Positions 54,753 through 64,000 of a DNA stretch of 64,000 bases are shown one piece after another. Made by a program: the position numbers and the translations under genes. Within the stretch, counting starts at the first letter, position 1; every line of letters starts with the position of its first letter. The stretch lies in NCBI RefSeq assembly GCF_058153355.1, contig NZ_CM177019.1; one strand, given 5' to 3'. A model generated the notes under the pieces. That model made no database searches. It saw only the letters and a program-made list of their open reading frames with translations, and was not told the DNA's origin.

Positions 54753-56153
54753 ATGACCTCTACACCGATTACTACCGCTGATATCGCTAAAGGTAAAATT
54801 GACGATGCGTTATCTGTACGGGAAAAAATAGGCTACGGCCTGGGTGACGCAGGCGGCACCGTAATAACTTGCCTGATCATGAACTTTCTCACCTTTTTCT
54901 ACACCGACGTTTTTGGCTTAACTCCGGCGCTGGTCGGCACGCTGTTTATTGCACTGCGCGTGTTTGATGCCATCTCCGACCCGGTGATGGGCGTCATTGC
55001 CGACCGGACGCAAAGCCGCTGGGGGCGTTTTCGTCCGTGGCAGCTATGGATTGCCGTCCCTATTGGCATTATCGGCATCCTGACGTTCACCGTACCGGAC
55101 GCCAGTATGGGGGTGAAGATCGCCTGGGCGTTCGGCACCTATCTGCTGCTTTCCGTCGGTTATACCGCCATCAACGTGCCGTACTGCGCGCTGATCAACA
55201 CCATGACGACCCGCCACAATGAGGTAATTTCGTGCCAGTCCTGGCGATTCGTTCTCTGCGGCGTAGCGGGATTTCTGGTTTCGGTTGGCCTGCCGTGGAT
55301 GGTAGATCTCTTCGGTCAGGGTAATGCCGCGCGCGGCTATCAACTGGGCGTCGGCGTGCTGTGCGCCATCGCTGTGGTGATGTTCCTGTGCTGTTTCTTC
55401 TGGGTTCGTGAACGGGTGCCACTCTCCACAATGGGGAAATTTACCCTGCGCGAACATCTTGCCGGGCTGCGAAACAACGACCAACTGCTGCTGATGCTGG
55501 TCATGTCTTTCCTGCTGATTAACGTCTTTAATATTCGCGGCGGTGGGTATATGTACTTCATTACCTACGTCTTACAAGGCAGTACGGGCTACACGTCGCT
55601 GTTCTTCACTATGGTCACCTTCGCCTCCATTATCGGCTCGGTGATTGTCAGCCCGTTAACGCGACGTTTCGATACCGTCAAAATTTACTACTACACCAAC
55701 CTGCTCCTCGCCGCGCTGGCGGTGTTGATGTGGTTCCTGCCTTCTGGCCCGGCTTATCAAACGCTGTGGCTGGCGGTGATCCTTGGTAATGGCGTGATTC
55801 TTGGCTTCACATTGCCATTGCACTTCTCATTGATGGCCTTTGCCGATGACTACGGCGAGTGGAAAACCCGCGTACGTTCTTCCGGCATGAACTTCGCCTT
55901 CAATCTGTTTTTCATCAAGCTGGCCTGGGCCTCCAGCGCCGGGATCATCAGCCTGCTGTTTATTTTTGTCGCCTACCAGCCTGGCGTGGAAAACCAGACC
56001 GCCAGTTCGCTTGGCGGGATCGCGGCGATGGAAACATTGCTGCCTGCGCTGTTCCACCTGCTGCTGGCGATGGCGATCCGCTTTTGCAAACTCAATAACC
56101 CTATGATGTCACGCATTGCTAGCGACCTGCGTCAGCGTCATGTACAGCCTTAA
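54753..56153 (+). CDS. GPH-family glycoside-pentoside-hexuronide:cation symporter
   Basis: 466 aa, 12 TM; MelB/YicJ-like N-terminal motif ([24 protein letters not shown]). Confidence 0.85.
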
Positions 56154-56163
56154 GGAGCACAAG

Positions 56164-58134
56164 ATGAACATTTCGGAAGTCGATCTGCATAAACTGACGG
56201 TCAGCGATCCGTTCCTCGGTCAGTACCAACAACTGGTCCGCGACGTGGTGATTCCTTATCAGTGGGATGCCTTGAACGATCGTATCCCAGAAGCGGAACC
56301 CAGCCATGCGATTGAAAACTTTCGCATTGCCGCAGGACTGCAAGACGGTGAATTTTACGGGATGGTGTTTCAGGACAGCGACGTCGCCAAATGGCTGGAA
56401 GCGGTAGCCTGGTCGCTGTGCCAGAAGCCGGATGCCGAACTGGAAAAAACTGCTGACGAGGTAATCGAACTGGTCGCTTCCGCCCAGTGCGAAGATGGCT
56501 ATCTCAATACTTACTTTACGGTAAAAGCGCCCGAAGAACGCTGGAGCAATCTGGCGGAGTGTCATGAACTTTACTGCGCCGGTCATCTGATTGAAGCCGG
56601 AGTCGCCTTCTTCCAGGCCACGGGCAAGCGGCGCTTGCTGGAAGTGGTTTGCCGTCTGGCCGATCATATCGACAGCGTATTTGGTCCAGGTGAAAGTAAG
56701 TTACACGGTTATCCTGGTCATCCGGAAATTGAACTGGCACTGATGCGCCTGTATGAAGTGACCGAAGAGCCGCGCTACCTGGCGCTGACGAACTATTTTG
56801 TCGAACAGCGTGGTGCGCAACCGCACTATTACGACTAGGAATATGAAAAGCGCGGGCAGACCTCGCACTGGCACACCTACGGCCCGGCGTGGATGGTGAA
56901 AGACAAAGCCTACAGCCAGGCACATTTGCCCATCGCACAGCAGCAAACCGCCATTGGTCACGCGGTACGTTTTGTCTACCTGATGACCGGCGTCGCGCAT
57001 CTCGCGCGTTTAAGTCACGATGAAAGCAAGCGTCAGGACTGCCTGCGGCTGTGGAACAATATGGCCCAGCGTCAGTTATATATTACCGGCGGCATTGGCT
57101 CACAAAGCAGCGGCGAAGCGTTCAGCAGCGATTACGATCTGCCGAATGACACGGTATACGCCGAAAGCTGTGCTTCCATCGGCCTGATGATGTTCGCCCG
57201 GCGAATGCTGGAAATGGAAGGCGACAGTCACTATGCCGATGTGATGGAGCGCGCACTGTACAACACCGTGCTCGGCGGCATGGCGCTGGATGGCAAACAT
57301 TTCTTCTATGTGAATCCGCTGGAAGTACATCCAAAATCGCTGAAATTCAACCATATCTACGATCACGTTAAGCCGATCCGCCAGCGTTGGTTTGGTTGCG
57401 CTTGTTGTCCGCCAAATATCGCCCGCGTGCTAACCTCGATTGGTCATTATCTCTACACGCCGCGTGAAGATGCGTTGTATATCAACATCTACGCAGGAAA
57501 CAGCATGGAAGTGCCGGTAGAAAATGGCACGCTGCGTCTGCGGGTTAGCGGAAACTATCCGTGGCAGGAACAGGTGACAATTGCGGTTGAATCGCCCCAG
57601 CCGGTGCGTCATACGCTGGCTTTACGTCTGCCGGACTGGTGCACACAGCCGCAGATTACATTGAATGGGGAAGAGGTCGAGCAGGATATTCGTAAAGGGT
57701 ATTTGCACATTACCCGCGAATGGCAGGAGGGCGACACGCTGAATCTGACTTTGCCAATGCCGGTACGTCGCGTTTACGGTAACCCGCTGGTGCGTCACGT
57801 CGCCGGAAAAGTGGCGATTCAGCGCGGCCCGCTGGTGTATTGCCTGGAACAGGCCGACAACGGCGAGTCACTGCATAACCTGTGGCTGCCCGCCGATGCG
57901 CCATTTACGACATTTGAAGGTAATGGATTGTTCCGCCATAAGATCTTAATCCAGGCACCGGGTTACCGGTATGAACAGAGCAATCCAGAGCAGCAACCGC
58001 TGTGGCATTACGACAGCGCGCCAGCCAAACGCCAGCCGCAAACTCTGACATTTATCCCGTGGTTTAGCTGGGCTAACCGGGGTGAAGGCGAAATGCGGAT
58101 CTGGGTGAATGAGGAAAACCAGTGCCATCCGTAG
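56164..58134 (+). pseudogene. GH127-like (DUF1680, beta-L-arabinofuranosidase family) glycoside hydrolase interrupted by in-frame TAG
   Basis: ORFs 56116-56838 and 56893-58134 are in the same frame, separated by TAG at 56836-56838; combined about 655 aa; RBS aaggag before ATG 56164. Confidence 0.7.
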
Positions 58135-60102: not shown

Positions 60103-61235
60103 TGATCGAGATAAAGGTAATGCACCCAACTGGTCATGCGTAACAGCACTTTGCGCATCACCGAGACATGGCTGAAATGATCAGAGTAAACCGCCACCTG
60201 GGCGTAAATACCGTCTGGTAAAGCGCTCAACTCAGTGTGCTCATCCAGTTCAATGGTCGCGATAACGCCATCTGAACCCGGTGCTGTGTTTAACGTCTGT
60301 AAGGTGCCGGTCGACTGATAAGCTCCGCCGGGAACAGCTGGGCTAATGGCTGCCAGCTTACCGCTGAATACCTTACCTGGCAGAGCATTAAACACCACTT
60401 CCGCATCATCGCCGGGAGCCAGTCGCAGCAAGGAGTTCTGACGGAACTGCGCCACAATTTGTCGTTTCTGATCGGGTATAAACACCATCACAGGACGTAG
60501 CGGCAGCGATGCGGCATAGGTACCCGGACGAATCAGCACTTGCGTCACATAACCATCGCTCGGCGCACGCACTATCGTCTGCTCAAGGTTATATTTTGCT
60601 TCCGCGAGCTGCGCTTTCAGGCTGGCGATTTGAGAATGTTCACCCAACACCAGGCTATCCAGCTGGCTCTGGATCTGTTTTTGTTCCGCCGCCGATGACT
60701 TTACGGAGGCTTCCTGCGCCAGATAATTTTGCCGCGCCACATCAATATCGCGTTCTGAAAACGGGTTTACTTTCGCCTGGCTGCCGCGTGCGTAACGCTG
60801 GTACTCTTTAGCGAATTTATCCCGCGTGGCCTTTGCCTGCTGAGTATTCGCCGCCATCTCATCTAACTCTGCGCCCAACGCCCGCTGTTTATGTTCTGCG
60901 GTAACGATATCCGCCATCAGCCGATCCACCCGCGCCTGATAACGCGTCGGGTCCAGTCGAAATAGCACCTCACCTTTTTTAATCAGCGTATTTTTCTTGT
61001 CCGTCACTTCGATCACCACGCCTGTCACCTGCGGGACAACAGGAATAGAAATAACTGCTTTTTGCGCTTTAAAGGTATACGGATGGTTATAGTTCATTAA
61101 CAGAATTAGACCGCTGACAATAAATATGCCACCCAGGGCCGCGGTGGGAATGGTCCATTTATTTACAGGAATTTTGAAGATCTTAAACATTGCCCATGCG
61201 AAAGCCACATAGGTCAAAATAATCAGTAAATCCAT
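60099..61235 (-). CDS. yiaV: HlyD-family membrane fusion (periplasmic adaptor) protein YiaV
   Basis: 378 aa; N-terminal TM, coiled coil, barrel-sandwich domain. Confidence 0.85.
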
Positions 61236-61240
61236 AAGTA

Positions 61241-61564
61241 TTACTCGGCAGAAGAGGATTTGATGTCGGCGAGCTGTTTCTCCAGCCCGGCAATACGCTG
61301 TTGTAGTTGCACAACGGAGGAGTCATGGTTTTGCATTCCCCATCCCCGCTCCGGGCGATAAAGCGTGGCCCAAATCCACAAAAATGGCCAGATAACATGC
61401 AGCGTAAAAAGACTCACCCAACCAGCAACATGAATGGCGTCGGCATGAGGATGATTACGTTTTTTAGCAATCAGGTAGGGAATATCATGTAAAATAATAA
61501 TCCCATAGAATATCACCAGAAATACAAAAATAAGCACTCCCAGTGCAAAATAGTCCAGGAACAT
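61241..61564 (-). CDS. yiaW: DUF3302 inner membrane protein YiaW
   Basis: ORF 61241-61594; start [11 protein letters not shown] at internal ATG gives 107 aa. Confidence 0.8.
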
Positions 61565-61725
61565 ATTTCCCTCAGAGAATATAAAAAAGAACAATTAACG
61601 CATATTATGAAATGCCATGATGCAGTGCAATTTCCTTATTTATATAACGACATATTGTTTTTTATATACTTTCCGAAGTGTGCTACCTGGCTTTTCAACA
61701 GGTCGAGGTTTATCATATTGAAATA

Positions 61726-62061
61726 ATGGAACTATTGACCAAACTAATGAATAACCCCAGTAAAACATCCACAGTACAGATAAAGCGTATTAAACCTTCA
61801 ATTATCTACCGTTTATTGCTGATTGGCCTCGGAACACCAATGGTGATTTACGGTCTGGTTTGCGGCGTTTTAGGCATATTTGGCTACGATCAGGTGAGAT
61901 GGAACGACACCGTGATCCACGGCCTGCTGGCCCTGCCTGCGGGATTGCTTGCAGGCCTGTCAGTCAGTGTGTTCCTCACCGTGGTGATTGGCACCATCGC
62001 TTGTTTTGGTCTGTGGCTGTACAGCCTGGTCCGCCCGCTCACCATCGAAACGCGAGATTAA
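61726..62061 (+). CDS. hypothetical small inner membrane protein (3 predicted TM helices)
   Basis: ORF 61678-62061; likely start MELLTKLMNNPSK at ATG 61726 (111 aa); hydrophobic segments; tail-to-tail 4-bp overlap with hicB-like gene. Confidence 0.5.
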   Translation: MELLTKLMNNPSKTSTVQIKRIKPSIIYRLLLIGLGTPMVIYGLVCGVLGIFGYDQVRWNDTVIHGLLALPAGLLAGLSVSVFLTVVIGTIACFGLWLYSLVRPLTIETRD

Positions 62062-62468
62062 ACGCCCGGCAATACACGCCGGGCGGCTTCCGCCAGAAAC
62101 GCACTTCTGTTGGCGTAGTCTGGGTTATTGCGCACGTAGGTATCAATCTTGTTCAGTAATCTTTTCGGCATCGTAATATTGATACGTTCAGCCCGACCTT
62201 CGAACTGATTCATATTGATATCCACCAGCAACCATTGCCCGCCAATAAAGTCCTGCGCACGCTGGACCAGATGTGTTTCCACAGAGCCTGGAAGCGGCAA
62301 CTCTTCATTCATCTCGCATAAGGTTTCGAAGTGCGCGACCAGTGCACTTCGCGCATCCTGGAAAGCGTTGTCCAGCGTATCACCAGCAAAATAACAGCCT
62401 GGAACATCAGGGAAAAAACCGCTGGCGCTGCCGTCAGGATCACTGTGGATATAGGCGGGATAAAACAT
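62058..62468 (-). CDS. hicB: HicB-family antitoxin (RNase H-like fold plus C-terminal ribbon-helix-helix)
   Basis: 136 aa; C-terminal RHH motif ERINITMPKRLLNKIDTYV...RSAFLAEAA; immediately downstream of hicA-like gene. Confidence 0.75.
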   Translation of the reverse strand: MFYPAYIHSDPDGSASGFFPDVPGCYFAGDTLDNAFQDARSALVAHFETLCEMNEELPLPGSVETHLVQRAQDFIGGQWLLVDINMNQFEGRAERINITMPKRLLNKIDTYVRNNPDYANRSAFLAEAARRVLPGV

Positions 62469-62484
62469 ATTGCCTCCTGAAATT

Positions 62485-62670
62485 TTAAAATGTTAAACCA
62501 GCCTGACGCCCAATTTGCGCCAGCGTACCGGGCTTAATATCTTTTTTAGGGTGCGGAACCGTCACCAGACCCGGATGAACAGGGTGGCGGAACTGATGAT
62601 GACTACCACGGGTTCGAATATGTTCCCAGCCATGCTGCTTCAGGATGGCGATCACGTCTGCACTTTTCAC
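62485..62670 (-). CDS. hicA: HicA-family toxin (YcfA-like mRNA interferase)
   Basis: 61 aa; dsRBD-like motif with conserved GSHHQF...PGLVTVPHPKKD. Confidence 0.8.
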   Translation of the reverse strand: MKSADVIAILKQHGWEHIRTRGSHHQFRHPVHPGLVTVPHPKKDIKPGTLAQIGRQAGLTF

Positions 62671-62947
62671 ATCCCTGCCCTTCCATGATTATACACACGA
62701 TACACACACATTTAGCAATAACAATCACGATAGCGCGATTTATATGGGCCGTCAGGGGGATAAAGTTGACTCAGGAATGCCGTTCGGAAGAAGAATAACG
62801 GTGTGCAGTAACTTGTTGAAAAGATGTGAGGAGACTCGTAATTAAGTTCAATCAATATTCAGTCATTCAAGACGTAGACATTTGAATTGGTAAAACGCGA
62901 AAGCGTCGCATCAGGCAATGAATACCCGATGCGACCAGCTTCTTACA

Positions 62948-64000
62948 TCAGAACAGCCCCAACGGTTTATCTGAGTAGCTCACCAGCAGGCACTTGGTTT
63001 GCTGATAATGCTCAAGCATCATCTTATGGGTTTCGCGCCCAATACCCGACTGCTTATAGCCACCAAACGCCGCATGTGTCGGGTAAGCGTGATAACAGTT
63101 GGTCCACACTCGCCCGGCCTGAATGCCGCGCCCCATCTTATAGGCCAGATTACCGTTGCGGCTCCAGACACCAGCCCCCAGACCATATTGCGTGTCGTTC
63201 GCCAGCTCCAGCGCTTCTTCCATCGTTTTGAAGGTGGTTACCGCCAGCACCGGACCAAAAATTTCTTCCTGGAACACGCGCATATTATTCTGACCAAACA
63301 GAATCGTCGGTTCGAGGTAGTAGCCGTCTTTCAGTTCGCCTTCCAGCAGCTTGCGCCGCCCACCGGTGAGCACGTCTGCGCCCTCTTTTTTACCGATATC
63401 AATGTAGTTGAGGATGGTTTCCAGTTGCCCGTGCGAAACTTGCGCCCCCATTTGCGTCACGCTATCGAGCGGGTTACCGCTGCGAATGCTTTCGACACGG
63501 CGGATGGCGCGTTCCATAAAGCGTTCGTAGATAGACTCCTGCACTAAAGCACGGCTTGGACAGGTGCAAACTTCGCCCTGGTTAAAGGCAAACAGTGCAA
63601 AGCCTTCCAGCGCTTTATCGAAAAAGGCATCTTCTTCATCCATCACATCAGCAAAGAAGATATTGGCGACTTGCCGCCCAGCTCCAGGGTTACCGGAATA
63701 ATATTTTGCGTGGCGTACTGCATAATTTGTTGGCCCACTTCCGTTGAGCCGGTAAACGCCACTTTAGCGATGCGTTTCGAGGTCGCCAGATATTCGCCAA
63801 TTTCCCCACCAGCACCGTTGACCACGTTCACCACGCCCGGCGGCAGTAAATCACCGACGATTTCCATTAGCAGCAGTACAGAAAGCGGGGTAAGACGTGC
63901 GGGTTTCAGCACCACACAGTTGCCCGCCGCCAGCGCGGGAGCCATTTTCCAGCTCGCCATCAGCAGCGGGAAGTTCCACGGAATAATCTGCCCCACCACG
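62948..64000 (-). pseudogene. aldB: aldehyde dehydrogenase B, 3' portion, with -1 frameshift
   Basis: C-terminal 232 aa (ORF 62948-63646) and upstream segment (ORF 63643-63999) are in different frames; the frame breaks after LELGGKSP where the plus strand reads gatattggcga (TT at 63663-63664) instead of an expected TTT; gene continues beyond the window. Confidence 0.7.

Follow-up and report, generated by a model that had tools for sequence, protein, structure and literature searches.

[quoted passage not shown] In HicAB of B. pseudomallei (structures 4C26, 6G26 and 6G1N), residues Gly22, Ser23 and His24 of HicA are required for toxicity (PMC11594946). In the RHH-type HicA3B3 of Y. pestis (4P78, 4P7D), hicA3 and hicB3 are 174 bp apart, and the main operator of HicB3 overlaps the -10 box (PMC11594946). 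E. coli K-12 has a HicAB (hicA/yncN and hicB/ydcQ; structure 6HPB) beside yncJ/ydcR, whose HicB carries a helix-turn-helix DNA-binding domain and which belongs to class 3 (PMC10865869). The HicA(T)B system of IncI2 mcr-1 plasmids has the toxin gene first in its operon and an internal terminator (Lin et al. 2025, PMC11878559).

We analysed a locus between yiaW and aldB in a 64,000-nucleotide stretch of E. coli DNA (RefSeq assembly GCF_058153355.1, contig NZ_CM177019.1; hereafter the window), of which the region 61200-63000 is 99.7% identical to E. coli strain R32_14_1F. Three ORFs lie between the two flanking genes: a convergent plus-strand ORF for a membrane protein, hicB and hicA. The same three genes are annotated by RefSeq in the near-identical strain R32_14_1F, where the products are named 'type II toxin-antitoxin system HicA family toxin' (WP_000833473.1), 'HicB family antitoxin' (WP_000499744.1) and, for the 104-aa membrane gene product, 'hypothetical protein'. 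An earlier note on this DNA had described minus-strand genes for a 61-aa HicA-type and a 136-aa HicB-type protein, with a 4-bp overlap between the hicB stop and the membrane gene. All three ORFs are present at the coordinates given there, and the TTAA at 62058-62061 is common to the converging stops of hicB and the membrane gene, giving the overlap of 4 bp. The features of the locus are:

61241-61564, minus strand: yiaW
61747-62061, plus strand: membrane-protein gene, 104 aa from its likely start, predicted inner-membrane protein
62058-62468, minus strand: hicB, ATG start, 136 aa (ORF list; RefSeq WP_000499744.1)
62485-62670, minus strand: hicA, GTG start, 61 aa (ORF list; RefSeq WP_000833473.1)
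62893-62945, no strand: REP-like palindrome separating the region upstream of hicA from the aldB stop
from 62948, minus strand: aldB 3' end

The REP-like element contains an inverted repeat with arms at 62905-62915 and 62925-62935, and is conserved in K-12, E. ruysiae and GH127-type E. coli; we take it to be one of the repetitive extragenic palindromes (REP) of E. coli. Two further genes of the window are interrupted. In aldB, a 1-nt deletion at 63656-63675 (minus strand; GCCAAT, against GCCAAAT in other strains) splits the gene into ORFs 62948-63646 and 63643-63999; either aldB is truly a pseudogene or the assembly is wrong here. Upstream of yiaT, an in-frame stop at 56836-56838 interrupts the gene for a GH127 glycoside hydrolase (56116-58134, plus strand), leaving ORFs 56116-56838 and 56893-58134, which share one frame. 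R32_14_1F has this gene intact, and the two sequences do not differ by an indel.

The pair in the window shares the order hicA then hicB with HicAB of B. pseudomallei. The B. pseudomallei HicA is likewise about 60 aa long with Gly22-Ser23-His24, about half of the residues being identical in alignment. The HicB proteins agree in their two domains, RHH tail included, and are 35-36% identical from end to end. The two systems differ in organism and locus, and the palindromic sites of B. pseudomallei have no known match in the E. coli motif described below. The Y. pestis HicB is also matched over its full length, and we propose for the E. coli pair the same overlap of operator and -10 box. The Y. 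pestis system differs in the distance between its genes (174 bp, compared with 16 nt in the window) and in its operators, which are 15-bp inverted repeats, whereas the window has a direct repeat and a separate imperfect palindrome; the HicA proteins have weak similarity (E 1e-4).

HicAB of K-12 shares superfamily, gene order and species with the window pair, but is found at another locus and has a helix-turn-helix domain where the window HicB has an RHH domain. The earlier note had held that the window proteins differ from K-12 HicAB, and this was borne out. K-12 and window HicA could be aligned over only 21 residues (38% identity, E 0.011) and the HicB proteins over the N-terminal residues 1-66 only (33% identity), and the K-12 HicB structures 6HPB and 6U0I matched our model of the window HicB over only about 88 columns (Foldseek). 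A close relation extending to the C-terminal domain of HicB was looked for and not found; the window pair is not of the K-12 type (class 3). A search of the literature library available to us returned no experimental paper clearly on the window hicAB locus. A hicAB deletion in ExPEC was reportedly studied by Hou et al. in 2023 (cited in PMC11594946).

Family, fold and toxicity residues of the pair

The family of both proteins, which the earlier note had proposed for checking by Pfam search, is supported by matches far beyond chance. HicA matched HicA_toxin (PF07927) at 2.1e-23, with residues 4-59 of 61 covering model positions 2-58 of 58, and PHROG 353 'toxin' at 8.7e-23; HicB matched HicB_lk_antitox at 9.1e-36 over residues 3-129. 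Neither protein was matched in PADLOC or NCBIfam. The nearest solved structures to HicA are those of B. pseudomallei HicA (4C26 and 6G26, 1e-16), in which G-S-A-H, where the alanine is the H24A mutation, aligns with G22-S23-H24-H25 of the window protein. The residues needed for toxicity in the B. pseudomallei toxin, Gly22-Ser23-His24, are thus present in the sequence of HicA. The hicA product is predicted to be a small RNase with the fold of a double-stranded-RNA-binding domain.

For HicB, the nearest solved structures over the full length are 6G1N and 6G26 (2.8e-25) and Y. pestis HicB3 (4P78/4P7D, 1.6e-21). An RHH domain at the C-terminus of HicB had also been claimed, and three results agree with it: residues 93-133 could be aligned with the RHH part of 6G1N and 4P7D, an AlphaFold2 model (pLDDT 88, built from 26 homologues) ends in two helices, at 102-114 and 121-135, and Foldseek matched this model to the RHH-type structures 6G26, 6G1N and 4P7D over 132-134 columns. 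The ribbon strand is not formed in the monomer model. In the N-terminal part, model residues 2-83 have the order of strands and helices expected for a partial RNase H-like domain, and the match to the N-terminal domain structure 6G1C has an rmsd of about 2 A. Alignment and model together give HicB a predicted N-terminal partial RNase H-like domain (approximately residues 1-90) and a predicted C-terminal ribbon-helix-helix (approximately 93-135). One source names a C-terminal HicB fragment 'CopG family transcriptional regulator'.

As in classical hicAB, hicA is upstream of hicB on the same strand with a short spacer, here of 16 nt. The pair is a classical hicAB of class 4. This confirms the observation itself, and the pair is an ordinary one, already named in public genome annotation; since it belongs to a well-studied family and RefSeq names both proteins, it matters little for discovery.

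Candidate expression signals and proposed mechanism

The candidate expression signals of the pair are:

62063-62085, minus strand: GC-rich hairpin, CGCCCGGCgtgtaTTGCCGGGCG then TTTAATCT (terminator scan)
62469-62484, minus strand: hicA-hicB spacer of 16 nt with AGGAGG (62473-62478), a strong Shine-Dalgarno sequence 4 nt before the hicB ATG (read from the sequence)
62688-62707, minus strand: candidate hicAB promoter/operator, GTGTGTATCGTGTGTATAAT (conservation between genera; putative function)
62724-62735, minus strand: second upstream box, CGCTATCGTGAT (putative function)

The sequence GTGTGTATCGTGTGTATAAT contains two TGTGTAT repeats 9 bp apart, a direct repeat also picked up by a repeat search, and the second of these runs into a perfect TATAAT (62688-62693) which ends 17 nt before the hicA start codon. 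Read as the motif GTGTGTATnnTGTGTATAAT (62707-62688), it is the same at 18 of 20 positions in E. coli, Enterobacter, Pseudescherichia and Trabulsiella. The second box, with the pattern CGCTAnnGTGnT (62735-62724), is invariant in the same four genera and is located inside an imperfect palindrome, AATCGCGCTATCGTGATT (62723-62740). The non-coding DNA around both boxes has diverged among the four genera. This pattern suggests that 62688-62707 is likely to hold a candidate -10 box with an overlapping HicB operator, and that the second box may serve as a further operator or as an upstream element of the promoter. A scan for sigma-70 consensus promoters upstream of hicA called none, and the best candidate for a -35 box, TTGCTA, would require a spacer of 19 nt; the candidate hicA promoter therefore rests on conservation between genera.

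Two hairpins were predicted in the putative operon. The hairpin at 62063-62085 has 9 pairs, 8 of them GC, spans the last eight codons of hicB and starts 1 nt (62062) past the stop codon of the membrane gene. Its folding energy is -23 kcal/mol, z being -3.8 for the plus and -1.7 for the minus strand, and it looks like a candidate operon terminator. At the 3' end of hicA (62490-62540, minus strand), a GC-rich hairpin followed by UUUAACAUUUU (UUUAAC in the predicted transcript) stands just before the ribosome-binding site of hicB. This arrangement recalls the internal terminator of HicA(T)B, in which the toxin gene likewise comes first (PMC11878559). The window hairpin differs in its setting, as it is inside the coding end of hicA, and its predicted fold is no better than that of shuffled sequence (z = -1.3). 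The HicB proteins of IncI2 plasmids are less than 60% identical to the window HicB, and the likeness of the window pair to HicA(T)B is not established. No part of the locus was matched in Rfam.

Taking toxicity, neutralisation and the operator and promoter roles from characterised relatives, we consider it highly probable that the two genes form a functional type II toxin-antitoxin module, a classical hicAB with an RHH-type HicB, which is an old resident of the aldB/selAB neighbourhood and to which the membrane gene is a separate neighbour. HicA would be a small RNase which cleaves RNA independently of the ribosome and arrests growth. The N-terminal partial RNase H-like domain of HicB would bind HicA and cover its catalytic histidine, while HicB dimers formed through the RHH tail would repress the operon, probably at GTGTGTATnnTGTGTATAAT overlapping the -10 box; HicA in excess would lift this repression. 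The hicA gene has a weak GTG start and upstream of it only GGAAGG (62679-62684), compared with the ATG and AGGAGG of hicB, so that synthesis of the antitoxin would be favoured and the antitoxin kept in excess. The module would have resided for long in this chromosomal neighbourhood of the Enterobacteriaceae and have been lost in many E. coli lineages including K-12.

Distribution and history of hicAB

The hicAB pair, scored as present where at least 80% of a 643-nt query was matched, was found in 505 of 5426 complete E. coli genomes (9%). In about 3400 further E. coli genomes, including MG1655, only a 49-bp piece of the hicB 3' end was matched. Pairwise alignment with K-12 showed that 62024-62080 and 62093-62148 are kept there, corresponding to the end of the membrane gene and the last codons of hicB, while REP-type repeats stand in place of the rest of hicB, all of hicA and the hicA promoter. 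The earlier note knew of no toxin-antitoxin module at this position in K-12; there is indeed no intact module, and K-12 keeps a relic of the hicB 3' end. The flanks vary among E. coli strains, as follows:

sgbE-AraC-MFS-GH127-yiaTUVW-membrane gene-hicBA-aldB: strain R32_14_1F, the window type and the fullest
sgbE-AraC-MFS-GH127-hicBA-aldB: strain RIVM_C037884
AraC-MFS-GH127-aldB, with a frameshifted GH127 gene and without hicAB: strain A1.S1.18
sgbE directly beside aldB: strain FDAARGOS_1256

Two E. coli backgrounds with differing flanks encode identical HicA and HicB. Linkage of hicAB and aldB is also seen outside E. coli, in E. albertii and E. ruysiae/marmotae, and all Escherichia copies examined keep approximately 25 bp of the membrane-gene 3' end beyond the hicB stop. 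Orthologues with 75-80% identity occur in the same neighbourhood in three other genera:

Enterobacter: aldB-yiaU-yiaT-hicAB-HSDR_N-GH127
Pseudescherichia: selB-ROK-aldB-hicAB
Trabulsiella: selAB-hicAB-HSDR_N-GH127

The neighbours of hicAB in other genera include defence-like genes, for an HSDR_N-domain protein and a Fic protein. The stretch from sgbE/malS to aldB/selAB is a mosaic, in which AraC-MFS-GH127, yiaTUVW, hicAB, the membrane gene and genes for a ferredoxin-like, an HSDR_N-domain and a Fic protein occur in combinations that vary between strains and genera. Its appearance is that of a variable hotspot of long standing. The aldB 3' end (62948-63630) is itself unusually diverged and mosaic among E. 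coli, with synonymous differences of 0.13-0.23 between backgrounds and blocks of 0 to 10 mismatches per 100 bp, which suggests old alleles shuffled by recombination.

Comparison between genera gives hicAB a pN/pS of about 0.2, with synonymous sites as saturated as those of the adjacent aldB, which fits long vertical residence under purifying selection. Within Escherichia, three E. coli copies (of two flank types) and one of E. albertii differ from each other at 2-5 of 613 hicAB positions, whereas synonymous differences in the neighbouring aldB 3' end are 0.21-0.31 in the same comparison. From this contrast, one hicAB allele seems to have spread recently by recombination. The hicAB of E. ruysiae has diverged as much as its aldB.

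These data bear on whether hicAB was acquired recently and horizontally as a strain-specific element. Its presence in only 9% of complete E. coli genomes and the near-identity of copies beside diverged aldB ends would fit such an event, which we nevertheless judge unlikely: the relic of the hicB 3' end is found at the same site in K-12 and in about 3400 further genomes, the E. ruysiae copy matches its aldB in divergence, and the orthologues of the three other genera share the neighbourhood and are saturated at synonymous sites. Plasmids and phages gave no close copy of hicAB, the best being less than 58% identical. An origin from plasmid or phage was rejected, as two near-identical 'plasmid' records are about 4.9 Mb long and the other copies are below that 58%. 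A model in which hicAB was inserted between the membrane gene and aldB in the Escherichia lineage was abandoned because of the orthologues in the same neighbourhood in three other genera. Of the description 'strain-specific' in the earlier note, the variable presence therefore stands, but the module is old and fixed in position. We conclude that hicAB is an old, position-conserved accessory module which has been lost from most E. coli and which persists in K-12 as a relic.

Changes that affect HicA were seen in two other lineages. E. ruysiae/marmotae has lost 68 bp between two CGTGAT repeats, and with them the conserved -10 motif, the ribosome-binding site and the first five hicA codons; the annotated HicA begins MKRAIV at a non-standard ATA codon, so that the toxin gene of this lineage is probably silent. 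The HicA of Pseudescherichia vulneris reads R-E-S-H-H, with Glu in place of the window Gly22; since Gly22 is needed in B. pseudomallei HicA (PMC11594946), this toxin may be attenuated. The repeated loss of hicAB in E. coli, together with the 5' hicA deletion in E. ruysiae, indicates that the module is dispensable.

Could the window pair then be a decaying relic, annotated but no longer toxic or expressed? The many independent losses in E. coli, the E. ruysiae deletion and the Glu of the Pseudescherichia toxin would fit such decay. However, both ORFs in the window are intact and the toxicity residues are present, there are zero non-synonymous changes relative to other E. coli copies, and between genera the pair is under purifying selection with a conserved promoter motif; we regard inactivity as improbable. 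We also considered that hicAB is a long-kept, vertically inherited resident that benefits its host, for example by phage defence, and not a drifting selfish element. This has a small probability. If it were true, the convergent overlap could couple hicAB and the membrane gene by transcriptional interference.

Three points are of modest use. E. coli has a second hicAB, of the RHH type, which K-12 has lost apart from a relic, and this loss makes K-12 a natural clean host for testing the pair. Chromosomal toxin-antitoxin pairs do not usually stay in one neighbourhood across genera as this one has, and this conserved position provides a clear phylogenetic footprint of the promoter/operator. The many natural configurations of the locus offer a ready series in which to study if such a chromosomal pair has a stabilising effect on its surroundings.

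The convergent membrane-protein gene

The ORF convergent to hicB is a real, conserved gene, as judged against its homologues in S. bongori, Klebsiella sp. RIT-PI-d and other enterobacteria, which are 103-105 aa long and 49-63% identical to it; relative to these, non-synonymous differences are 0.16-0.28 and synonymous differences saturated at 0.71-0.83. The length of the homologues and the onset of conservation at MNN make ATG 61747 (104 aa) the likely start, and not 61726 (111 aa). Hydropathy and an AlphaFold2 model (pLDDT 75) give two long hydrophobic helices, at 17-44 and 59-95, and as the second is long enough for two transmembrane segments, a protein with three is possible but not supported. 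The earlier description of a convergent 111-aa protein with three transmembrane segments was thus right in the convergent gene, while the length is likely to be 104 aa and the prediction is of two long helices. The protein had no family match in Pfam, NCBIfam, PHROGs or PADLOC.

The earlier note had listed the membrane protein together with the pair, and the membrane protein, HicB and HicA might form one three-gene unit, in which the membrane protein is a sensor or second effector or convergent transcription controls hicB. The 4-bp overlap of the stops, the hairpin common to the junction, and the last approximately 25 bp of the membrane gene kept at every Escherichia hicAB locus examined are in keeping with such a unit. 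Across genomes, however, the membrane gene and hicAB do not regularly occur together. In S. bongori, Klebsiella sp. RIT-PI-d and another enterobacterium, the membrane gene is convergent to aldB at 43-60 bp with no hicAB between them; Pseudescherichia vulneris has aldB-hicA-hicB without the membrane gene, and hicAB has other neighbours in Enterobacter and Trabulsiella as well. An intact membrane gene is found in 27 of the 5426 complete E. coli genomes, compared with the 505 that have hicAB. The window-type arrangement is complete from yiaW to aldB, with membrane gene and hicAB, in 15 of these 27, that is in 15 of the 505 hicAB-positive genomes, and the other 12 have no hicAB annotated beside the membrane gene. 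The gene thus occurs without hicAB, and most hicAB-positive E. coli are without the gene. This distribution largely refutes a three-gene unit, which we hold to be very improbable indeed, and indicates that the two are independent occupants of one slot. The membrane gene has long been a neighbour of aldB in its own right and abuts hicB by chance.

A shortened form of the gene is found in K-12 and most E. coli, where a 47-aa 'hypothetical protein' (WP_001066080.1) is annotated between yiaW and aldB. Two other names were considered for ORFs at this place: identity of the K-12 47-aa ORF with ysaE was rejected, as ysaE pairs with hokA elsewhere, and a placement of the K-12 pseudogenes ysaC and ysaD between yiaW and aldB was dropped, as a strain table puts both between yiaS(sgbE) and yiaT. 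Relative to the window, the K-12 gene has an in-frame 171-bp deletion (61853-62023), which in WP_001066080.1 is a loss of 57 codons between the repeats ...GLV and ...SLV. The first hydrophobic helix and the last 10 residues are kept, and WP_001066080.1 could still be made as a small membrane protein.
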